Assembly: GCF_030013595.1 (NCBI RefSeq)
Contig: NZ_CP122768.1
DNA: 64,000 nt
Strand: one strand, 5' to 3'
DNA from: Escherichia coli
GTDB lineage: Bacteria; Pseudomonadota; Gammaproteobacteria; Enterobacterales; Enterobacteriaceae
The position numbers were made by a program, and so were the translations under genes. Below the pieces are notes generated by a model, which worked only from the letters and a program-made list of their open reading frames with translations, did not search any database and was not told where the DNA came from. This document shows positions 1 through 57,501 of this stretch, in pieces; the stretch's first letter is position 1, and each line of letters opens with the position of its first letter.

Positions 1-241
1 ACGGGAGATTATCAATTTAATGTTCAGCCAGGGTATATCCTGGATAACTGCCGTGCGTATCAGGCATAAACTATCACTTGCTGAAGTAAGTAAAATGTTA
101 GGTATCTCCATTAATTCTCTAAAACAGATCGAAAAGACGGAACGGCTTAGTTCAAACATCAAAAGCAAAATGGCAGGAATTTATGGTTGTCCACCAGAGT
201 TGCTGATATGCCCTTCCTGGATGACGGCTGAACATAAATGA
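1..241 (+). CDS. XRE-family HTH protein, 3' portion (reading frame open to window start)
   Basis: Frame is open from position 2 to the stop at 239-241; LSLAEVSKMLGISINSLKQIEKTERL resembles an HTH_3 motif; N-terminus lies outside the window. Confidence 0.35.
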   Translation, partial: REIINLMFSQGISWITAVRIRHKLSLAEVSKMLGISINSLKQIEKTERLSSNIKSKMAGIYGCPPELLICPSWMTAEHK

Positions 242-339
242 ATAGATTCGTGAATAGATACTTGAATGTATTTTATTTTCTATCCATATGAAAAATAATA
301 GTAAATCTATAAATCAGTTGCTATTGATGAATAGATACT

Positions 340-368
340 AAAAAGCCGGAGCAGTCTCCCGCTCCGGC
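340..368 (-). terminator. rho-independent terminator downstream of deoD
   Basis: GCCGGAGC / GCTCCGGC 8-bp stem with 8-nt loop (345-368), followed on the minus strand by a T-run (340-344). Confidence 0.5.
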
Positions 369-401
369 TTCACAAGGCAATCGCCTTTCAGCAAAACACA
401 A

Positions 402-1121
402 TTACTCTTTATCGCCCAGCAGAACGGATTCCAGTGCGATTTTGATCATGTCGTTGAAGGTGGTCTGACGCTCAGCGGCAGTGGTCTGCTCGTGAGTGCG
501 GATGTGGTCAGATACGGTACAGATGGTCAGGGCTTTCGCGCCAAATTCTGCAGCGACGCCGTAGATACCAGCTGCTTCCATTTCCACGCCGAGGATGCCG
601 TATTTTTCCATCACGTCGAACATTTCGCCGTCCGGAGAGTAGAACAGGTCAGCGGAGAACAGGTTACCAACGCGAGCATCAACGCCCAGTGCTTTAGCCG
701 CGTCTACCGCGTTACGCACCATGTCAAAGTCAGCGATAGCGGCAAAGTCATGGTCTTTAAAACGGATACGGTTAACTTTGGAATCGGTGCAGGCACCCAT
801 ACCGATAACGACGTCGCGCAGTTTTATGTGTGGCAGAACAGCGCCACAGGAGCCTACGCGGATAATTTTCTTCACGCCGAAATCGGTGATCAGTTCTTTG
901 GTGTAGATGGAGCAGGACGGGATACCCATACCGTGACCCATTACGGAAATTTTGCGGCCTTTGTAAGTACCGGTGAAGCCCAGCATACCGCGAACGTTGT
1001 TCACTTCACGGGCATCTTCAAGGAAAGTTTCAGCAATATACTTCGCACGCAGCGGGTCGCCTGGCATCAAAACTACGTCAGCGAAATCGCCCATTTCTGC
1101 ATTAATGTGTGGGGTAGCCAT
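402..1121 (-). CDS. deoD: purine nucleoside phosphorylase
   Basis: Translation from [28 protein letters not shown] matches DeoD; ATG at 1121-1119; 239 aa. Confidence 0.95.
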
Positions 1122-1177
1122 TGTTTTATCCTTTTTGTGACATAACAAAGGCGGAGTCAACGCTCCGCCCAAATCCA

Positions 1178-2422
<1,245 letters not shown>

Positions 2423-2452
2423 TCAAATTTAAATGATCAGATCAGTATACCG

Positions 2453-3775
2453 TTATTCACTGATACGACGATAGACAGTTGGTGTGCTTTCCGGTGCTTT
2501 ATCGGCAAGTTTAATTGCCGCTTTCACCGCTTTAGCCGCTTCCTGCCAGCTGTTTTCGTCTTTCGCGTGGATAACCGCCAGCGGACGCTGACCGTCTACC
2601 TGGTCGCCCAGACGCGCCATATCAGTAAAGCCGACGCTGTAATCGATGGTGTCAGATGCCTGACGGCGTCCGCCGCCCATTGCAACCACTGCCATCCCCA
2701 GCGCACGGGTATCCATTTCACTGACAAAACCTTCGGTATCAGCATAGACTGCTTTCGTCAGCATCGCTGTCGGTAGATACTTCGCGTAGTTCTCAACGAA
2801 GTCAGTCGGGCCTTTTTGTGCCGCTACCATACGACCAAAGACTTCTGCCGCTTTACCGTTGTCCAGCACCGCCTGCAATTTCGCGCGCGCTTCGGCGTCA
2901 TCTTTCGCCAGTTTGCCGGAGATAAGCATCTCTACGCACAGCGCCATCGTGACATCAAACAGACGCGGGTTACGATACTCACCCGTCAGGAACTGCACCG
3001 CTTCACGAACTTCAACCGCGTTACCTGCACTGGAGGCCAGTACCTGATTCATATCGGTGAGCAGCGCGGTGGTACGCACGCCAGCGCCGTTAGCCACGCC
3101 AACAATCGCTTCGGCAAGGGCTTCAGAGAGTTCGTAGGTCGGCATAAACGCGCCGCTACCCACTTTCACGTCCATCACCAGCGCGTCCAGACCTTCCGCC
3201 AGTTTCTTCGCCAGAATAGAGGCGGTGATCAGCGGGATGGAGTCCACGGTTGCGGTAATATCACGGGTCGCGTAGAAACGTTTATCCGCCGGAGCCAGTG
3301 AGCTGGTCTGGCCGATAATCGCCACGCCGACGTCTTTAATAATTTCGCGGAAACGGTTGTCATCCGGGAAAATGTCGAAGCCAGGGATGGATTCCAGTTT
3401 GTCGAGCGTACCGCCAGTATGACCGAGGCCGCGACCGGAGATCATCGGAATATAGCCGCCGCAGGCTGCGACCATCGGCCCCAACATCAGCGAAGTCACA
3501 TCGCCGACGCCACCGGTGGAGTGTTTATCAACAATTGGGCCATTCAGATGCAGGCTTTTCCAGTCGAGAACGGTTCCTGAATCTCGCATCGCCATGGTCA
3601 GCGAGACACGCTCAGGCATTGTCATATCGTGGAAGAAAATGGTCATCGCGAGAGCGGCAATCTGCCCTTCGGAGATAGTGTTGTCGCGAATACCGTTGAT
3701 AAAGAAACGAATTTCTTCATCGCTCAGCGCATGACCATCACGTTTTTTACGAATAATTTCTTGTGCGAGAAACAA
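2453..3775 (-). CDS. deoA: thymidine phosphorylase
   Basis: Translation (M)[24 protein letters not shown] matches DeoA; TTG start at 3775-3773 preceded by GGGAGG; 440 aa. Confidence 0.92.
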
Positions 3776-3852
3776 GGTAACCTCCCGTGGAAAAGAGACG
3801 AGGTAATCGGGGAACCGGATGAGCATCGCTGCGTCATCCGGCAAATCAAGCC

Positions 3853-4632
3853 TTAGTAGCTGCTGGCGCTCTTACCGTCGCCGTGGCCCAGAGCCTTCAG
3901 CAGGCTTGCCAGCAGGCTGGAAGCGCCAAAGCGGTAGTGACGCGCATCGGCCCAATCAGCGCCGAACAGTTCATCGGCGATGGCGAGATATTTCTGCGCA
4001 TCTTCCGCAGTACGCACGCCGCCCGCCGGTTTGAAACCAACGGTTTTTTCTACGCCCATATCACGGATCACTTCCATCATGATGCGCGCGCTTTCCGGCG
4101 TCGCGTTCACTGCCACTTTACCGGTAGAGGTTTTGATGAAGTCAGCACCCGCTTTGATGGAGATTTCAGACGCTTTACGGATCAGCGCTTCGTCTTTCAG
4201 TTCGCCGGTTTCGATGATCACTTTCAGCAGTACATTCGCTGCCGCACAAGCATCTTTACAGGCTTTCACCAGGTCAAAACCAACCTGCTCGTTACCTGCC
4301 ATCAGCGCACGGTACGGGAACACTACGTCAACTTCATCGGCACCGTAGGCGATTGCCGCACGGGTTTCTGCCAGCGCGATGTCGATGTCATCGTTACCGT
4401 GTGGGAAATTAGTTACCGTAGCGATACGGATTTCCGGGGTGCCCTGCTCTTTCAGCGTTTTGCGAGCAATCGGGATAAAGCGAGGATAGATACAGATAGC
4501 GGCGGTATTGCCGACCGGAGTTTTGGCCTGATGACACAGAGCAATTACTTTCTCGTCGGTGTCGTCGTCATTCAGGGTGGTCAGGTCCATCAATTTCAGT
4601 GCACGCAGGCTGCTTGCTTTCAGATCAGTCAT
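3853..4632 (-). CDS. deoC: deoxyribose-phosphate aldolase
   Basis: Translation [29 protein letters not shown] matches DeoC; ATG at 4632-4630; 259 aa. Confidence 0.95.
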
Positions 4633-10565: not shown

Positions 10566-12152
10566 TTAATGCTCGCGGGTCTGGTGGAACTGAACGTCCG
10601 GATAACGTTCCTGCGCCAGACGCAGGTTGACCATGCTGGTAGCGATGTAAGCGAGGTTATCGCCGCCATCAAGCGCCAGTTGGCTTTCGTTCTTACGCTT
10701 GAACTCTTCGAATTTCTTCGCGTCCGCACATTCTACCCAGCGGGCAGTGGCAACGTTGACTGACTCATACACTGCTTCAACGTTGTATTCGCTCTTCAGG
10801 CGCGCTACCACCACATCAAACTGCAGCACACCAACTGCACCAACGATCAGGTCGTTGTTGGAGATCGGACGGAACACCTGCACCGCGCCCTCTTCGGAAA
10901 GCTGTACCAGCCCTTTGAGCAGCTGTTTTTGCTTCAGCGGATCTTTCAGGCGGATACGACGGAACAGTTCCGGTGCGAAGTTCGGAATACCGGTGAACTT
11001 CATCATCTCCCCCTGGGTAAAGGTGTCACCGATCTGAATAGTGCCGTGGTTGTGCAGGCCGAGGATATCGCCCGGATACGCTTCTTCAACGTGCGAACGG
11101 TCGCCCGCCATAAAGGTCAGCGCGTCGGAGATCACCACATCTTTCGCGGTGCGCACCTGGCGCAGCTTCATGCCTTTTTCATATTTACCGGATACCACGC
11201 GCATAAACGCCACGCGGTCGCGGTGTTTCGGGTCCATGTTGGCCTGAATTTTAAATACGAAGCCGGTAAATTTGTCTTCGCTCGCTTCTACGGTACGGGT
11301 ATCAGTCTGACGCGGCATCGGCGCAGGTGCCCACTCCACCAGGCCATCCAACATATGATCGACGCCGAAGTTACCTAGCGCAGTACCGAAGAATACCGGA
11401 GTGATTTCGCCCGCAAGGAATAATTCTTTGTCGAACTCGTTAGACGCGCCTTTCACCAGTTCCAGTTCGTCACGCAGCTGCTGCGCCAGATCTTCACCAA
11501 CCGCAGCATCGAGATCCGGGTTATTCAGCCCTTTAACAATGCGGACTTCCTGAATGGTGTGGCCTTTACCACTCTGATAAAGATAGGTTTCATCTTTATA
11601 AAGGTGGTAAACGCCTTTAAACAGCTTGCCGCAGCCAATCGGCCAGGTGATCGGCGCACAGCCGATTTTCAGCTCGTTCTCAACTTCATCGAGCAGTTCC
11701 ATCGGGTCGCGGATATCACGGTCAAGTTTGTTCATAAAGGTGAGGATCGGCGTGTCACGCAGACGGGTAACTTCCATCAGCTTGCGGGTACGATCTTCAA
11801 CACCTTTTGCGGCGTCGATAACCATCAGGCAGCAGTCCACCGCCGTCAGGGTACGATAGGTATCTTCCGAGAAGTCTTCGTGCCCCGGGGTGTCGAGCAG
11901 GTTAACCAGGCAATCGTGATACGGAAACTGCATCACAGACGTAGTAATGGAGATCCCACGCTGCTTTTCCATCTCCATCCAGTCCGACTTAGCGTGCTGG
12001 TTGGAACCACGGCCTTTTACTGTACCGGCGGTCTGAATGGCCTGTCCGAACAGCAGCACCTTCTCGGTGATGGTAGTCTTACCGGCGTCTGGGTGAGAAA
12101 TAATTGCAAAGGTTCTTCTTTTCGCTACCTCTGCGGCCAAAAGGCTTGTCAT
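10566..12152 (-). CDS. prfC: peptide chain release factor 3 (RF3); 5' end replaced by prophage attR sequence
   Basis: Translation [25 protein letters not shown]... matches PrfC; N-terminus here is [16 protein letters not shown] versus my recollection [17 protein letters not shown] for E. coli K-12, with the K-12-type 5' end found displaced at 57451-57501. Confidence 0.92.
12091..12104. repeat. attR core (direct repeat GGGTGAGAAATAAT)
   Basis: Identical 14-mer at 57437-57450; flanking sequence diverges between host and phage on each side. Confidence 0.65.
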
Positions 12153-12172
12153 AATTGTTGTCTCGTTGATTA

Positions 12173-12287
12173 TGTACAATCATATGTACAAAGAAAAATT
12201 CATGCCGCTGATTGTACATTTTGGAGGTATCAGAGCATAGCAGAACATGATCAGTAGGTGTATTTGTAGCCAAAGCTCATTTGTACA
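12173..12287. repeat. cluster of four TGTACA hexamers (putative integrase arm-type sites, attR arm)
   Basis: TGTACA at 12173, 12185, 12213 and 12282 in A/T-rich context just inside the prophage; similar cluster at the attL arm. Confidence 0.35.
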
Positions 12288-12306: not shown

Positions 12307-12356
12307 TTGACACTGTTTATTCACCCAGTTAAAAATAAGACTGTATACAAACACAG
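12307..12356 (+). promoter_or_regulatory. putative sigma70 promoter with LexA (SOS) box
   Basis: TTGACA at 12307-12312; CTGTATACAAACACAG (CTGT-N8-ACAG) at 12341-12356, immediately upstream of the dinI-like ORF. Confidence 0.6.
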
Positions 12357-12371
12357 TATAGAGGGAATTTT

Positions 12372-12591
12372 ATGCGTATTGAGATCTGCATAGCCAAAGA
12401 GAAAATGACTAAACTGCCAAACAGCGCTGTGGATGCGTTAGAAGGAAGAATTAACCCGACGCACCGGTAAGCGTTATGAAGATGTAGAGGTGATCGTAAA
12501 AGCCACCAGCAATGATGACCTTTCTGTTACACGCACCGCCGATAAAGATTCAGTTAAAATTTTTGTTCAGGACACTCTGAAAGATACCTAG
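12372..12591 (+). pseudogene. DinI-like protein gene, apparently frameshifted
   Basis: Frame 1 gives [23 protein letters not shown] then stops at 12468; an overlapping frame continues [49 protein letters not shown] to 12591; together they resemble DinI. Confidence 0.6.
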
Positions 12592-12644
12592 GAATTTGCT
12601 GACGAGTGATTTAGTTCATCATCTCTGGACACAATTCACTTGTA

Positions 12645-12682: not shown

Positions 12683-13387
12683 ATGGGGCAGTTTTTTCCT
12701 CTTGCGTATGCAAGGGCGGCTCTGATAATGAACAGTAATATTTTACTGTTGAGCTTATGCTCACTGATCCTGCCGAGCAGGATGTTCAACGGTTCCAATA
12801 TATCCTGCCCCTTCCGCTTTTTAAAAGGATATTTTATGCATGAAAATATTTGGTTTACATATAAAGCCCGTATTCAAGCGCACCATAGACTAGAATGGCT
12901 TGAAAAACACTCTCAATTTATCCTCGTTTGGTATGCTATATTGAGTGCGGTACTTTCAATTATAACGTTACGATTTCCAAAATTTCTAGGAGATAATACA
13001 GATATCGTTGCGGCAATACTTTCAGTGGCTCTACTGGGTATTTCTCTGATCGTATCTAACCTAGATTATCGTGGTCGAGCAATAGCCATGAGAAGGAATT
13101 ATATTGCACTACAGAGACTCTATTTTGATATTAATAACGGCCAACAGTTAACTCTTGAACAGAAAGAAAAATATTTTAATTTGCTCAATGAGGTTGAGAA
13201 TCATCGTGACATAGATGATAAAGTTTCAAGGGTAACTCAAGTTGGACTTACGACTAGACTCCCCACACAAAAAGAAAAAATAATTGTTAAATTATGGATA
13301 TTACGTCGAATGTTTATTACTGTCGGCCTTTATATCCTCCCATTAATATGTCTTTGGATTGACTATGAATGCAAGCAGAGTTTTTAA
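12683..13387 (+). CDS. multi-helix membrane protein, partner of the reverse transcriptase
   Basis: 234-aa ORF with hydrophobic segments (ILLLSLCSLILPS, FILVWYAILSAVLSIITL, IVAAILSVALLGISLIVSNL, ITVGLYILPLICLWI); overlaps the RT gene; alternative start at 12836 also has an SD. Confidence 0.7.
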   Translation: MGQFFPLAYARAALIMNSNILLLSLCSLILPSRMFNGSNISCPFRFLKGYFMHENIWFTYKARIQAHHRLEWLEKHSQFILVWYAILSAVLSIITLRFPKFLGDNTDIVAAILSVALLGISLIVSNLDYRGRAIAMRRNYIALQRLYFDINNGQQLTLEQKEKYFNLLNEVENHRDIDDKVSRVTQVGLTTRLPTQKEKIIVKLWILRRMFITVGLYILPLICLWIDYECKQSF

Positions 13388-14735
13388 AAAGTCATTCTCG
13401 AAAAAAAACCTTCTAAAAGTATACAATGAAAAAATCAAAGAATCAGGAGCGATTGGCATAGATCGGATTCGTCCATCAAAACTTGATTTAACAATAAAGA
13501 ATGAGATCACTTTTATTTTTGAAAAGGTTAATTGTGGAAATTATAAATTTACAGCATATAAAGAAAAATTAATATCTAAAGGGGCTAACTCTATCCCCAG
13601 ACAGATTTCCATACCAACTGCCAGGGACAGAATTACCCTTAGGGCTCTCTGTGAATGCCTTACAGAAATATATCCTAACTCCAGATTAAAACTACCACAT
13701 ACAGTAATTGACTTATTGAAAAATGCATTAAACAGCGATCTATATGCTGAATATGCAAAAATAGATCTCAAAAGTTTCTATCCTTCAATTGAACATAAAT
13801 TGATATTTAATGCAATAAAAAATAAGATTAGAAAAAAAGAAATTAGGCAGTTAATAACATCATCATTAATCGTGCCTACTGTAAGTGGAAGTACAGGAAG
13901 CAAAGGTGTCCCTAATAATACCAGAGGAGTACCTCAGGGGTTAGCAATATCAAACATTTTAGCTGAAATATCACTATCTGATTTCGACAATGAAATCAAT
14001 AAAATGCATGACATATGGTACATGCGATACGTTGATGACATTCTTATTTTAACGCAAAAAGATCAAGCAACAAAAATTGCATCTCATATCATTGATAAGC
14101 TTCAATCATTAAATTTAAACCCACATCCATTAAATGAAGAGAACTCAAAATCCAAAGTAGGCAGCTTGGATGAAAGTTTCAACTTTTTGGGCTACCACAT
14201 AAAAAATCGAGAATTATTGATAAAACATGAGAGCATTCTTAGATTTGAGTCATCCTTAGCAAAAATTTTTACTGCATATAGACACGCTCTACTACAAGCT
14301 AAAAATAAGCGCGATAAAGAACGAGCTGTTGCATATTGTCAGTGGAAACTAAATCTTAGAATTACGGGGTGTGTGTTTGAAGGTAAACGATTGGGATGGG
14401 TATCGTACTTCTCACAAATAACGTCAACAGCTCAACTTCGAGCTGTTAATCATACGATCAATAATCTTATCCGCCGATTCGGCCTTTCATCAGAAATAAA
14501 ACCAAAGTCTTTGATTAAAACTTTCTATGAACTCCGCAGGGGTAGAGCGGAGACTTTTAAATACATACCTAACTTTGACAATCTACATATATCTCAGAAA
14601 CGAGAAATTGTTTCTATGTGGATAGGGAAAGAGAATGAAAAAAAACTTAGCAATAGTGAAATAGAGAGAAAATTTAAATTTAAAATTGCGAAATCAGTAA
14701 AAGAGCTTGAAGAGGACATTTCAGGGATATCATAG
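13365..14735 (+). CDS. reverse transcriptase (Abi/retron-like, family unassigned)
   Basis: RT motifs in canonical order: KIDLKSFYPSIEH, GVPQGLAISNILAEISL, YMRYVDDILIL, FNFLGYHI, plus a ~170-aa C-terminal extension; ATG at 13365 (TTG at 13359). Confidence 0.88.
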   Translation: MNASRVFKKSFSKKNLLKVYNEKIKESGAIGIDRIRPSKLDLTIKNEITFIFEKVNCGNYKFTAYKEKLISKGANSIPRQISIPTARDRITLRALCECLTEIYPNSRLKLPHTVIDLLKNALNSDLYAEYAKIDLKSFYPSIEHKLIFNAIKNKIRKKEIRQLITSSLIVPTVSGSTGSKGVPNNTRGVPQGLAISNILAEISLSDFDNEINKMHDIWYMRYVDDILILTQKDQATKIASHIIDKLQSLNLNPHPLNEENSKSKVGSLDESFNFLGYHIKNRELLIKHESILRFESSLAKIFTAYRHALLQAKNKRDKERAVAYCQWKLNLRITGCVFEGKRLGWVSYFSQITSTAQLRAVNHTINNLIRRFGLSSEIKPKSLIKTFYELRRGRAETFKYIPNFDNLHISQKREIVSMWIGKENEKKLSNSEIERKFKFKIAKSVKELEEDISGIS

Positions 14736-52973: not shown

Positions 52974-53593
52974 TGACCACATTTACCGATAAAGAACTGA
53001 TTAAAGAAATCAAAGAACGAATCAGCAGCCTAGAGGTTCGAGACGATATTGAGCGCCGTGCTTATGAAATTGCTCTGGCATCGCTAGAAGAGGAGCCGGT
53101 GGCATGGCTGCATTCAGAAAATGGCTTAGGTATTCCGGCAATAACGAGGAGTAAAAACATTGCTGACAGTTGGTTATCAAAGGGCTGGTATGTTCAGCCG
53201 CTATATATAGCCAAGCCAGTGCCGGTGGTGCCAGATGCTCGTCCGTCTTTAAATAATGGCATAGTCGGTTTTGATGAAGGCTGGAACGCCTGCCGCGCCG
53301 CCATGCTTCATGGTGCCGAACCTGTAAGCCAGACTTACAAGTTGAACAAGCTGTCGGGCAACTCTCCAGTAACTCCGGATGGTTGGATAAGCTGTAGTGA
53401 GCGAATGCCGAACGATAAACAGTATGTTTGGTGTTGGGGGAAGCCTTACGGCTGGACTGAGTGCGATACCTTCGAAGGGTATTACGATTGGTCGAGAAAC
53501 AAATGGTGGGCAGTTACTGACGATAGGGAAGAACCGGCATCGAAAGTAACCCACTGGATGCCGCTACCGGAGCCGCCGCAGGAGGTGAAGTAA
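52973..53593 (+). CDS. DUF551 domain protein
   Basis: C-terminal VTHWMPLPEPP motif typical of DUF551 proteins in lambdoid early-left regions. Confidence 0.5.
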   Translation: MTTFTDKELIKEIKERISSLEVRDDIERRAYEIALASLEEEPVAWLHSENGLGIPAITRSKNIADSWLSKGWYVQPLYIAKPVPVVPDARPSLNNGIVGFDEGWNACRAAMLHGAEPVSQTYKLNKLSGNSPVTPDGWISCSERMPNDKQYVWCWGKPYGWTECDTFEGYYDWSRNKWWAVTDDREEPASKVTHWMPLPEPPQEVK

Positions 53594-53787
53594 TGAACAA
53601 CTTAATGACAACTAAACAAGTCGCCGACTTCTGTGGCGTTTCAGTATCGACTGTTCTTCGCTGGAACAGCGTAAACAGGAGAACTGGCCAGAAATACAGG
53701 CCTGACTTTCCAGATCCTGATATTAAATCCTGCCCAAATAAATGGGCATCACGCAAGATATACAGATTTGCTGGAGTTATTGAGTAA
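53593..53787 (+). CDS. AlpA/excisionase-like small HTH protein
   Basis: 64-aa ORF, TTKQVADFCGVSVSTVLRW HTH-like segment, near the integrase end. Confidence 0.45.
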   Translation: MNNLMTTKQVADFCGVSVSTVLRWNSVNRRTGQKYRPDFPDPDIKSCPNKWASRKIYRFAGVIE

Positions 53788-54025: not shown

Positions 54026-55726
54026 TTATTTAGGTACGCTATCAACACTTTTGAGAATCGTTGATGTTAAAGGCTGCGACTTTAGTAAGTCTCGAGAAAT
54101 ATCCGGATCTGGTATAGCTATTTTTACTAAACTCTCAAGTTTTTCAAACCACTCCCCATCATTCATTGAGAATAAGTTATGAAGAGCTTCATTTTTATTT
54201 TTGAACCCCCAAGCCTTATAATTATTACCACAGTATTTTGACGCAGCAGTTAGAATATGCCAGCGTAATTTTGAATACTTCCCATCAAACCTCTTATTTG
54301 AGATAAGAGCCTTTAGCCTATACAAGCAATAGCAAGATATATAATAATCATCCTCGAGGGCATCGGAAGAGAAAACCTCATTAAGTAAGTCACCAGTTAA
54401 CCTATTTGGATAACGACTGGAATAATCTGGTCTCATCATAACAATAGCAGCATATGCTCGCGCAACTTCTCTGATATCAAATATGCGTACTGGAGCTATA
54501 CTTTCTGAACTATACTGCCCCTTTCTTCTCTCAAAATAAATTTTATTTCCTTCAATAGCACCTTTAGCATTAAAATAATGTTCTAATTCCCTTAATTTTT
54601 TTAGCGTTGAAATGAACTGTGCATCTTCAACTTTAGATTGTCTATTCGTAGCTCGTACAATGTCATCAAGGATCGCTGGCTCATCGGTTTCAATTAATTT
54701 AATCATTAAACTAACTGATTCATCTACTTGAATGTCTTTTGATATAAGAACATTAGACGTTTGACATCCATTAACAATTTGAAAATCTCGTATAAAAATT
54801 TCTTGCCCTGCAGGCCTCACGCTTGATGCAACTATTGTCACTCCATTATTCATTAAACCAAATCTTGCTTTTTTTCCATCAGTATCTAGTGTTCCTGCAA
54901 TTTCTGAATTTACGTCACCATCAATTCCCAGAAAATCTCTAACATTTTCTTCGAATAATTTTTTTCGAGGGTTTCCATTTTTGTCTTTAAGTATAGAATC
55001 AATAAAACTACGAGCTTTGACTGTAGCTACATAGGCATTATTAATATTAGGGGCCGCTGGGAATGGAGCATAGCCTATTGTAGGAAGTTTAGCTTCTATT
55101 GGACCTTCCGCAGCAAGCCAAAGCTCATGAATCATGTCTTTGTGAGCCATAATGAAGGATGTTTCATGTGAAAACCCGAGTGACTTTAAGCTTTTTTCAC
55201 CCGATGCAAATGCAGCTTTTATTTCTCTGGCCTCTGTATTTTGTGCAGCACTAAAAAAATATGCGTATAAGTCTGGAAGGCCATTTTTGACTCTGCCGAT
55301 ATTAGCAAATATCAAGTTGAACATTTTTTTAAAGTCCGCTAGATATTCACTGTGGGGTTGTTGTGGCGCTGGTGAAAGATAATCTCTTATTGACGCAATG
55401 TAAGAGTCTATTTCCTGTTTGCTCCACTTCTCCGATGACTTAGCTTGCGTGAATACTAATGAAACTTGAAACTCGCGACGTGAGTTTTGGAAAATCTCCT
55501 GAAGTTCTTCAGTTGAAAAAATGGCTCTGTCGTCTAAAAATAAAAATGCTCCATCAATACCAGGGTCCGGGCCTTCATACACAAGATCACTGACCTCAAC
55601 TTTGTCGCCTGAGTATTTTGAAAAAGCACAATAGTTCACAAACGCCTCAAAATTTTTGGTCTCCTCATAGGGCGCAGCGAATGCTTTGCAAAAGGCATCG
55701 AAATAAGATTTCGTGACTAAATGCAT
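54026..55726 (-). CDS. AIPR-family abortive-infection-like protein (tentative)
   Basis: ~566-aa AT-rich ORF between AlpA-like gene and integrase; FQIVNGCQT motif as I recall for AIPR proteins; ATG 55726 preceded by AAAGGAG. Confidence 0.6.
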   Translation of the reverse strand: MHLVTKSYFDAFCKAFAAPYEETKNFEAFVNYCAFSKYSGDKVEVSDLVYEGPDPGIDGAFLFLDDRAIFSTEELQEIFQNSRREFQVSLVFTQAKSSEKWSKQEIDSYIASIRDYLSPAPQQPHSEYLADFKKMFNLIFANIGRVKNGLPDLYAYFFSAAQNTEAREIKAAFASGEKSLKSLGFSHETSFIMAHKDMIHELWLAAEGPIEAKLPTIGYAPFPAAPNINNAYVATVKARSFIDSILKDKNGNPRKKLFEENVRDFLGIDGDVNSEIAGTLDTDGKKARFGLMNNGVTIVASSVRPAGQEIFIRDFQIVNGCQTSNVLISKDIQVDESVSLMIKLIETDEPAILDDIVRATNRQSKVEDAQFISTLKKLRELEHYFNAKGAIEGNKIYFERRKGQYSSESIAPVRIFDIREVARAYAAIVMMRPDYSSRYPNRLTGDLLNEVFSSDALEDDYYISCYCLYRLKALISNKRFDGKYSKLRWHILTAASKYCGNNYKAWGFKNKNEALHNLFSMNDGEWFEKLESLVKIAIPDPDISRDLLKSQPLTSTILKSVDSVPK

Positions 55727-55982
55727 AAAAACTCCTTTCTGAAATAAGATAAGTTTATTAGAAACAACAAGATAAAGATAAAGATAATAGTAATACAAGT
55801 TAAAGACATACTGCATCACATAAGTTGGTCAAGATCAATAAATCAATAAGGATCCCCTATGTTTTATGTATTGTTGATAATTCTATCACCTCTTACTTCT
55901 GGTCTAAGCGTAACCTACTCAAGAATGCCATTGAAAATGTCCACTGTTCGCTCAAAACAGACTGTCAGGGCTACGCAAGCTG

Positions 55983-57206
55983 TCAGGTAGATTCTGGGCC
56001 AGTACAAGTAACGATCGATTCAACTCTCTCCCACCATGCCTGATATGCTTTACGCTGTTCTTCTAGATAATCGCTCTTGTCATAAACCTGCCAAACCCCT
56101 GGCAGTTTATGGCCGAGCATTATTTCTGCAATATGAGGAGCAGTAAGATCAGAAAAGTTTGTTCGTGCTGTTCGCCTCAAATCATGAAGAGACCAATGAG
56201 GGAATTGATGCCCCAAACGCCTCCATGCGTACTGCATTAAATTGTAAGGCAGCGACTGCAATGATGTTCGACCAACGGGTTCCCTGCTTCCTTCCTTAGT
56301 AAAAAGCATATCGGAACCATTGTTCATAGAGATAGCGTTCTTTATAAGCTCCTCCACCGGTTCAATAATGGGCCTCTTTAGCGGTTCGCCTGTTATCTCT
56401 CCAGTCTTATGTCGTTCTGGTGGTACAGTCCATACCTTATTAATGAAATCAAAATCGCCCACCCTGGCAGTAATTAGCTCTGAACTACGGCAGCCAAAAT
56501 GCAGCAATAGCTTAATGAAGGCCCGGTATTTAGGAACCATTCGAGAACCATCGATCGCAGAATAAAGGATTTTAATTTCATCATGTGTCAGAAACCGTTT
56601 CTTCTGACCTTTACGGATATCCATATCTTTACCCGTGATATCCGACAGCGGGCGAGTTTCAATGAGCTTTCTCTTATACGCCCAGACATGGGCCTGCTTT
56701 GCGTTAATTAGCAATCGGTCTGCTATTGCTGGAGTCTTAGTGCTAAGAGGCTCCAGGACTTCTAACCAATCATGCAATGTAGCTGCATCGTGAGGGATAT
56801 TCCCGATTTTAGAGAACAGGTGCAGCTCAAACGAGCGGAGTATCTGTTCAGAACCTTTTTTATTTTTTACACAATATGCTTCATACCAGGCACGGATCAC
56901 AGACTCTACCGTCATGGCTTCAGTAGCTTTTCGTTTTTCAGCCTGCTTGACCAATCGTGGATTACGGTTTGACTCAAGTTCACCACGGAGACGGATAACT
57001 TCTTCTCTGGCCTCTTTTAATCCAGTTGCCGGGTAAGTTCCGATATCAAGACGCTCACCTTTCCCTGCCCATTGATAACGATATTGGAACACTACGCGAC
57101 CTTTCGGTGATACTCTGACAGACAGACCATCACGATCGGATTTAACCAAAACCTTATCACGTTCCTTTCCAACGACTGAACGCAACCACGCATCAGACAA
57201 CGCCAT
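55983..57206 (-). CDS. int: tyrosine integrase (P4-like, N-terminal arm-binding domain)
   Basis: 407-aa ORF; N-terminal LSVRVSPKGRVVFQYRYQWAGKGERLDIGTYP; catalytic-region motifs LHDLRRTARTNF and IMLGHK. Confidence 0.9.
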   Translation of the reverse strand: MALSDAWLRSVVGKERDKVLVKSDRDGLSVRVSPKGRVVFQYRYQWAGKGERLDIGTYPATGLKEAREEVIRLRGELESNRNPRLVKQAEKRKATEAMTVESVIRAWYEAYCVKNKKGSEQILRSFELHLFSKIGNIPHDAATLHDWLEVLEPLSTKTPAIADRLLINAKQAHVWAYKRKLIETRPLSDITGKDMDIRKGQKKRFLTHDEIKILYSAIDGSRMVPKYRAFIKLLLHFGCRSSELITARVGDFDFINKVWTVPPERHKTGEITGEPLKRPIIEPVEELIKNAISMNNGSDMLFTKEGSREPVGRTSLQSLPYNLMQYAWRRLGHQFPHWSLHDLRRTARTNFSDLTAPHIAEIMLGHKLPGVWQVYDKSDYLEEQRKAYQAWWERVESIVTCTGPEST

Positions 57207-57225
57207 TACTCACCTTGTACAAATC

Positions 57226-57272
57226 GCAAAACACCTCTGCTGTTTTGTACATTATGTACAAGCATATGTACA
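57226..57272. repeat. cluster of four TGTACA hexamers (putative integrase arm-type sites, attL arm)
   Basis: TGTACA at 57226, 57246, 57255 and 57267, between the int start and the attL core. Confidence 0.35.
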
Positions 57273-57436
57273 GATTTTTGATGAAAGCAAACTGATCGAT
57301 TTAAAGTTACATGAAAGAATTTTCAATTAAAGAAGCCACATAACCAAATGTATTTAAATGAGTTATATAGCTCAAGCTCAATTAACTGAAAGGATTTTGA
57401 AAGAGTAAAAGAGCTTTAATTTGGGCTTAATTATTG

Positions 57437-57450
57437 GGGTGAGAAATAAT
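57437..57450. repeat. attL core (direct repeat GGGTGAGAAATAAT)
   Basis: Identical to 12091-12104. Confidence 0.65.
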
Positions 57451-57501
57451 GGCAAAAGTGCGGCGCTTCGCCACCTCTTGCAAATAAGGAGACAACGTCA
57501 T
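57437..57501 (-). pseudogene. displaced original 5' fragment of prfC
   Basis: Minus strand reads ATG ACG TTG TCT CCT TAT TTG CAA GAG GTG GCG AAG CGC CGC ACT TTT GCC ATT ATT TCT CAC CCC = [22 protein letters not shown], then diverges into phage sequence with a stop. Confidence 0.75.

Follow-up and report, generated by a model that had tools for sequence, protein, structure and literature searches.

How efficiently an element integrates and excises, and in which direction, is set by the arm-type sites of its integrase, which have been mapped for only a few integrases. In lambda these sites (P1, P2 and P'1-P'3) are repeats unlike the core, with the motif C/AAGTCACTAT, that lie in both arms of an attP of about 240 bp; some are closely spaced in tandem, and separate accessory-protein sites lie beside them. 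Lambda Int is a heterobivalent tyrosine integrase with an N-terminal arm-binding domain, and its gene is read towards attP.

In KplE1 (CPS-53) and the HK620/Sf6 relatives, int adjoins attL and is read away from it, so that the int promoter lies among the arm sites. The arm sites of IntS, which have a motif with a conserved TAAA, overlap this promoter, and IntS and the excisionase (RDF) TorI have been shown by experiment to repress int (Panis et al. 2010, PMC2951348). The TorI sites are arranged in blocks between core and promoter, the RDF gene is separate from int, and the target is a tRNA gene, argW.

The SXT/R391 elements (for Int and Xis, Hochhut & Waldor 1999, to the extent that it is cited in PMC4344509) cross over near the 5' end of prfC and bring a new prfC 5' end with them. 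Their int is read towards attP and is expressed from a distant, SetCD-dependent s003 promoter, while xis adjoins and faces attP (PMC4344509). The integrases of SXT and of the cdtI phage have been placed in one 'SXT cluster' (Smyshlyaev et al. 2021, PMC8138268). The cluster includes Stx- and Cdt-converting phages, and its SXT/R391 elements are agents of the spread of multidrug resistance among Vibrio and Proteus. The records of cdtI, 2H10, Ayreon and the Stx prophages have no arm-site annotation, and we found no published TGTACA arm sites, binding data or recombination data for SXT-cluster integrases in the open-access literature.

The 64-kb stretch of DNA analysed here (the window) holds a 45-kb lambdoid prophage that splits prfC (10566-12152, minus strand) near its 5' end in an E. 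coli chromosome. Judged from its integration site, core and homology, its integrase is a member of the SXT cluster of DUF4102 integrases. Integrases 97-99% identical to it are encoded at the same site by Ayreon and by Stx1a/Stx2c prophages at prfC, and the attP regions of cdtI, 2H10, Ayreon and the Stx1a/Stx2c prophages are 95-97% identical to that of this phage; these lambdoid prfC relatives differ only in cargo, such as the gene between int and xis. The same int is found at prfC in about 697 of 5,426 complete E. coli genomes (about 13%).

Like lambda Int, this integrase would be heterobivalent with an N-terminal arm-binding domain, although the N-domain belongs to a different family (Arm-DNA-bind_3/DUF4102) and the putative arm motif, TGTACATA, differs from that of lambda. 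The attP is longer (about 420 bp), transcription of int leads away from it, and xis does not share a transcript with int. The gene order resembles that of KplE1, in that int adjoins attL and is read away from it and the RDF gene is separate, yet the target is the 5' end of a protein-coding gene rather than a tRNA gene. With SXT/R391 the prophage shares its crossover spot in prfC, the supply of a new prfC 5' end, a homologous integrase and TGTACA pairs flanking the core. The cores (ATTATTTCCCACCC in the SXT/R391 element R997, ATTATTTCTCACCC here) differ at one of 14 positions; the site flank is TA here as opposed to AA in SXT/R391, and the Xis proteins are unrelated in sequence. The TGTACA sites that we describe would thus be a further instance of lambda-type arm sites and of a KplE1-like attL, which is unsurprising in principle.

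TGTACA clusters in both arms of the attachment site

The prophage ends were set by a three-way comparison with the empty prfC site of E. coli B (L001), in which both junctions share a 14-bp identity (Table 1). Rebuilding attP from the int side and the prfC side gives a sequence that is one contiguous stretch in the free phages 2H10, cdtI and Ayreon (95-97% identity), and both TGTACA clusters therefore flank the core in the phage. Integration alters the N-terminus of RF3 (12105-12152 compared with 57451-57500), so that a host translation factor receives both new first codons and a new promoter from the prophage.

The window contains 14 copies of TGTACA against 11.6 expected, a total that is not unusual, but eight of the 14 copies fall in two short clusters just inside the prophage ends. 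The original prediction was of four hexamers between the int start and the attL core and four more inside the attR arm (12173-12287). All eight are present, although the interval 57226-57272, in which the int-side cluster had been placed, covers only three of its four copies and misses that at 57216-57221. Dinucleotide-preserving shuffles of the local sequence gave means of 0.08-0.14 copies per arm, with four copies reached in none of 20,000, and no 120-bp stretch with four TGTACA arose in 300 shuffles of the whole window. The clustering of the eight repeats is real and lies far beyond chance.

The two clusters had also been described as symmetric around the cores. They do occupy two arms, with distal sites 68-177 bp and int-side sites 164-215 bp from the core, but since the nearest sites lie at 68 bp on the distal side and at 164 bp on the int side, the layout is two-armed without being symmetric. 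Each arm contains a tandem pair in a 12-bp register, cTGTACAtatgctTGTACAtaat (57272-57255) in the int-proximal arm and tTGTACAtatgatTGTACAtaat (12190-12173) in the distal arm. Both are read on the int-sense strand, in the same orientation, and are 264 bp apart in the attP of this phage. We derived a position matrix from relatives (asymmetric consensus about [G/A]TGTACATA); by its scores the tandem pairs are best in int sense, the copies at 57216 and 12213 are best inverted, and the orientation of those at 57246 and 12282 is ambiguous. The other six TGTACA copies in the window score mostly lower, five of them at 3.7-7.5 bits and one at 10.7. Read in int sense, attP runs from a copy of ambiguous orientation through an inverted copy and the distal tandem pair to 20 nt of spacer, the ATG of the phage-borne prfC', the core, a 164-bp interval, the proximal tandem pair, a second ambiguous copy, a second inverted copy, the Shine-Dalgarno sequence and the ATG of int. 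This gene begins 231 bp from the right-hand core (attL) and points away from it.

Table 1. Positions in the window of the attachment-site features and recombination genes
Feature	Position	Strand	Remarks
Excisionase (RDF) candidate	53593..53787	+	64 aa; helix-turn-helix
Tyrosine integrase (int)	55983..57206	-	407 aa; Arm-DNA-bind_3, Phage_int_M and Phage_integrase domains
Inverted TGTACA copy	57216..57221	+	touches the int Shine-Dalgarno sequence (TGTACAaggtgagtaATG in int sense)
Additional TGTACA beside proximal pair	57246..57251	.	orientation ambiguous; only in E. coli/Trabulsiella/Pantoea clade
Proximal pair, repeat 2	57255..57260	-	tTGTACAtaat; 12 bp after repeat 1; TGTACATAA invariant across 8 genera
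Proximal pair, repeat 1	57267..57272	-	cTGTACAta in int sense; invariant in 8-genus alignment; 13.0 bits int-sense
CTTTCA repeats (x4)	57282..57403	-	57282, 57312, 57387, 57398; all int sense; between core and TGTACA pair
Core identity, int-side junction (attL)	57437..57450	.	GGGTGAGAAATAAT; by comparison with L001
Native prfC 5' end	57451..57500	-	orphaned beside attL
Core identity, prfC-body junction (attR)	12091..12104	.	GGGTGAGAAATAAT; by comparison with L001
Phage-supplied prfC 5' end	12105..12152	-	16 codons; takes the place of the native start after integration
Distal pair, repeat 2	12173..12178	-	tTGTACAtaat; 20 nt upstream of phage-borne prfC ATG
Distal pair, repeat 1	12185..12190	-	tTGTACAtatg; oriented like proximal pair; 15.2 bits int-sense
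Distal copy inverted relative to pair	12213..12218	+	11-nt perfect inverted repeat with 12172-12182
Outlying distal TGTACA	12282..12287	.	orientation ambiguous

Conservation of the tandem pair among relatives

An integrase alignment retrieved 80 genomic loci (98-43% identity) from Enterobacterales, Pseudomonas, Burkholderiales, Shewanella, Methylobacter, Acinetobacter and others. GTACA-N7-GTACA occurs no more than 120 nt upstream of the int ATG in 71 of these, usually at about -70/-58, compared with four occurrences elsewhere in the same loci (1.01 Mb), three of which resemble distal arms that previous elements left behind. The upstream pair is kept even in hosts with 65-69% G+C, and 51 of the 80 relatives have an inverted TGTAC at -35 to -5 of the int ATG, in contact with the Shine-Dalgarno sequence. 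These counts, together with the shuffles and the arms of relatives, refute the notion that the repeats are chance clusters in A/T-rich intergenic DNA. Such a notion could draw on the unexceptional total in the window, but it runs against both the local and the scan statistics and against conservation over phyla-level distances, including the G+C-rich hosts, and we give it practically no credence.

In an eight-genus alignment of proximal arms, the invariant columns outside the core fall almost all within three TGTACA sites, and among 24 distinct E. coli arm variants no variable position lies within a hexamer. Across relatives from 98% to 32% identical, the tandem pair gTGTACAta-N-gTGTACAta in its 12-bp register is all that is conserved of the arm sequence. 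It is shared by Enterobacterales, Pseudomonas, Burkholderiales, Acinetobacter, Moraxella and the SXT/R391 element R997, and is present in both arms wherever both can be read. Five other elements with a contiguous attP, namely Acinetobacter phage ABMM1, the viral contigs L199 (integrase 32% identical), L204 (Moraxella type) and L227, and the ICE R997, have a second, like-oriented pair at a distance of 233-283 bp. A conserved 9-10-bp site of fixed geometry offers a practical signature with which to delimit attP, attL and attR in genomes. A scan of viral contigs with the integrase alignment returned only near-identical E. coli prophages and yielded no divergent arms. Of the 80 viral loci matching GTGTACATNNNNGTGTACAT, 15 have an adjacent integrase homologue; the remaining matches are probably mostly chance, though a few may be distal arms.

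A short prfC remnant, sought by a peptide pattern given that plain tblastn was too insensitive, precedes int by 195-230 nt in 44 of the 80 loci. No tRNA gene adjoins int in the 42 loci scanned, the only ones seen (L009) being about 2.8 kb from int, which rules out tRNA targeting in these loci. From the prfC remnants and the lack of adjoining tRNA genes it follows that the lineage targets one spot in prfC across bacterial orders. Three loci (L018, L081 and L084, at -305, -322 and -323 from the int ATG) have an additional tandem pair that precedes the 'host' prfC remnant by about 30 nt, a hint that the remnant itself was left by a previous member of the family and that integrations at prfC have been serial. 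In L018 every copy at both positions is the variant CGTACA.

In a further variation, the first bases of repeat 2 and of the inverted repeat 3 are altered jointly (CGTACA/GTACG, AGTACA/GTACT) and repeat 1 remains TGTACA. This co-change is not universal; it was observed in the Pseudomonas loci L016, L017, L021, L024 and L025 and also in L032, L033, L043, L049 and L070.

The circular record of R997 (NZ_KY433363.1) has three TGTACA tandem pairs in attP. The first, gTGTACAaatccgTGTACAaa, lies about 19-20 nt before the element's own prfC' ATG, and the second is 143 bp past the core. A third, with 13-bp spacing, is found upstream of xis and may overlap a SetCD box. All five TGTACA copies in the 5 kb examined (84300-85368 and 1-4000) are within attP. 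R997 Int is 39% identical to the integrase of this prophage overall (E 8e-91), with 56% identity in the N-domain and 27% and 40% in the other two domains. As int of SXT/R391 is far from the pairs, the pairs there belong to attP, and can neither be a feature of the int promoter nor autoregulate int.

Which protein reads the repeats

The TGTACA core is palindromic, with asymmetry given only by its flanks. Monomeric arm-binding domains seldom have such sites, which more often belong to dimeric helix-turn-helix proteins. We weighed both the integrase and the excisionase as readers of the repeats.

The integrase has the Pfam domains PF13356 (Arm-DNA-bind_3, E 1.8e-16), PF22022 and PF00589, and its residues 1 to 80-96 match, by phmmer, the solved arm-binding domains of the HPI and HAI7 island integrases (3JTZ/3RMP and 3JU0). 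The N-domain is the best or co-best conserved part of the protein, with 48-62% identity to distant relatives, and it co-varies with the repeat. TGTCCA (L063, L078) goes with W29/F41/K52/T54, A/GGTACA (L028, L061) with Y40-S41 and GGTGTAAA (L052, L055) with N29/M41, whereas GTACA is kept in all of the 70-odd loci whose integrases have F40-Q41. This co-variation involves three clades only, as three independent events.

The alternative is that the repeats are sites of the excisionase, tandem RDF sites bending the arm for excision and shutting off int. A palindromic hexamer in a tandem 12-bp register would suit helix-turn-helix dimers, an xis gene convergent with int accompanies it in Enterobacterales relatives, and TorI, the RDF of KplE1, binds tandem sites beside the int promoter (PMC2951348). 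However, the motif is unchanged from E. coli to Acinetobacter, Moraxella and R997 while Xis diverges beyond detection: an Xis homologue accompanies int in Enterobacterales, gives only weak matches in Acinetobacter and is barely detectable outside Enterobacterales, and the Xis proteins of this phage and of R997 have no alignable similarity. The TGTACA pairs are, moreover, in both arms, whereas the Xis sites of lambda lie in one arm only.

A better RDF candidate is provided by a second class of repeats that varies between lineages. In this prophage it consists of the four CTTTCA repeats, which are missing from the distal arm and confined to the int-proximal one, placed much as the TorI blocks of KplE1 are. 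We take these as candidate Xis sites, more natural in that role than TGTACA. CTTTCA-like blocks were also seen in Trabulsiella, Pantoea and Xenorhabdus arms. In other lineages AGACA, GGACA or TCAT arrays replace CTTTCA as short direct repeats found in the proximal arm only, and probably mark sites of each lineage's own accessory protein. Direct repeats of this kind (AGACA x3, GGACA x3, TCAT x4) lie 10-11 bp apart just upstream of the TGTACA pair; they were seen at L080 (about -100 to -75), L064, L166 (1326-1440) and the Xenorhabdus loci L034-L062.

Because of the co-variation, the conservation of the N-domain, the divergence of Xis and the lineage-variable second repeat class, we favour the integrase N-domain as the reader, and regard binding by the excisionase as improbable. 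Taken with the Arm-DNA-bind_3 domain, the single attP of the free phages and the conservation of the sites, this supports the arm-type reading of the original prediction, and we consider it likely that the TGTACA repeats are arm-type sites of the prophage's heterobivalent tyrosine integrase. The N-terminal arm-binding domain would hold the TGTACA sites while the C-terminal domains act on the core. In the excised phage there would be a tandem pair on each side of the 14-bp core with inverted single copies outside, and the resulting intasome would integrate the phage into prfC at codons about 17-21 and, with help from Xis, excise it.

The excisionase candidate itself shares 62 of 64 residues (97%) with a phage 2H10 ORF that bears the annotation excisionase. 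Convergent with int, it is a separate gene and not co-transcribed with int, as is also the case in phage 2H10 and in L007-L012. Between the two lies an AbiU/AIPR abortive-infection gene (54026-55819, minus strand); since phages 2H10 and Ayreon have unrelated genes in this slot, it is a variable cargo position.

Expression of int and prfC, and neighbouring genes

The int ATG is preceded by 66 nt that the int-proximal sites wholly occupy or frame, at positions stereotyped across the 80 loci, and each tandem pair immediately precedes the start of a gene on the minus strand, by 44-66 nt in the case of int and by 20-38 nt in that of prfC'. Such positions could be taken to mean that the repeats are transcription signals only, a duplicated promoter/operator module that serves int and the rebuilt prfC and takes no part in recombination. 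The TAA(T/A) conserved behind repeat 2, which gives a weak -10-like CATAAT overlapped by the proximal repeat 2, would fit this explanation, as would the placement of both pairs directly before gene starts and their fixed distance from the int ATG. Against it, consensus promoter scans found no sigma-70-like promoter for int or the rebuilt prfC on the minus strand in either arm, and in R997 the pairs flank the core even though int is in the s003 operon far from them. Elements that target genes other than prfC (L166, L199, L204 and L227) keep a distal pair as well, and a pure signal for host RNA polymerase would not co-vary with the integrase N-domain. We therefore think a purely transcriptional role quite unlikely.

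A further suggestion is an RNA hairpin in the int leader, in which repeat 2 would pair with the inverted copy beside the ribosome-binding site and which would control translation. The two are indeed inverted repeats, and their first bases change together in Pseudomonas and Pantoea/Methylobacter relatives with repeat 1 staying TGTACA. For the sequence in the window, however, the predicted fold does not stand out from shuffled controls (z = -1.14; 25 of 200 did as well), the joint changes have exceptions (L023, L082), and repeat 1, the distal arm and the R997 pairs would be left unexplained. On the folding result we reject the hairpin, which we rate as very improbable.

Returning to the repeats as integrase arm-type sites, their occupancy may still affect expression. 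Given that the sites fill the last 66 nt ahead of int, in places that the family conserves, autoregulation of int by arm-site occupancy is plausible and even likely, and integrase bound at the int-proximal sites would probably repress its own gene, as IntS does in KplE1. The attR-arm copies had also been predicted to fall in the region of the prfC promoter, and they do: since only 20 nt separate the distal pair from the phage-supplied ATG that follows it, the prfC promoter has to coincide with this pair at least in part or else be situated further upstream. The promoters on which the integrase would act in these ways went undetected in the sigma-70 scans. The distal pair perhaps has an effect on prfC expression, and the TGTACA sites are a candidate link from the level of integrase to the expression of both genes.

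The broadest reading is that the tandem pair in its 12-bp register, [G/A]TGTACA(T/A)A, is a universal arm signature of the prfC-targeting SXT-cluster lineage (phages, islands and SXT/R391 ICEs), with the distal copy, about 20 nt before the prfC start, fixed as a prfC operator occupied by integrase. If so, the level of integrase would tune the expression of int and of prfC (RF3) in lysogens and in ICE hosts. The geometry between pair and prfC' ATG in R997 matches that of this phage. Elements that do not target prfC keep a similar distance from pair to pair, however, and intasome geometry alone may thus explain the position of the distal pair. We offer this broadest reading tentatively and think it doubtful.

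Two further features were observed inside the distal prophage end. A dinI-like gene (12307-12600, plus strand), intact in phage 2H10, is frameshifted here, with a stop after 33 codons and the C-terminal part in another frame; it is preceded by a LexA box, CTGTATACAAACACAG (12341-12356), and by a promoter-like TTGACA-18-AAAAAT (12307-12336). Beyond it is a two-gene defence candidate (12683-14735, plus strand) that consists of a SLATT_5/RTasSLATT membrane protein followed by a UG17-class reverse transcriptase, the latter matching DRT in PADLOC (E 8e-159).
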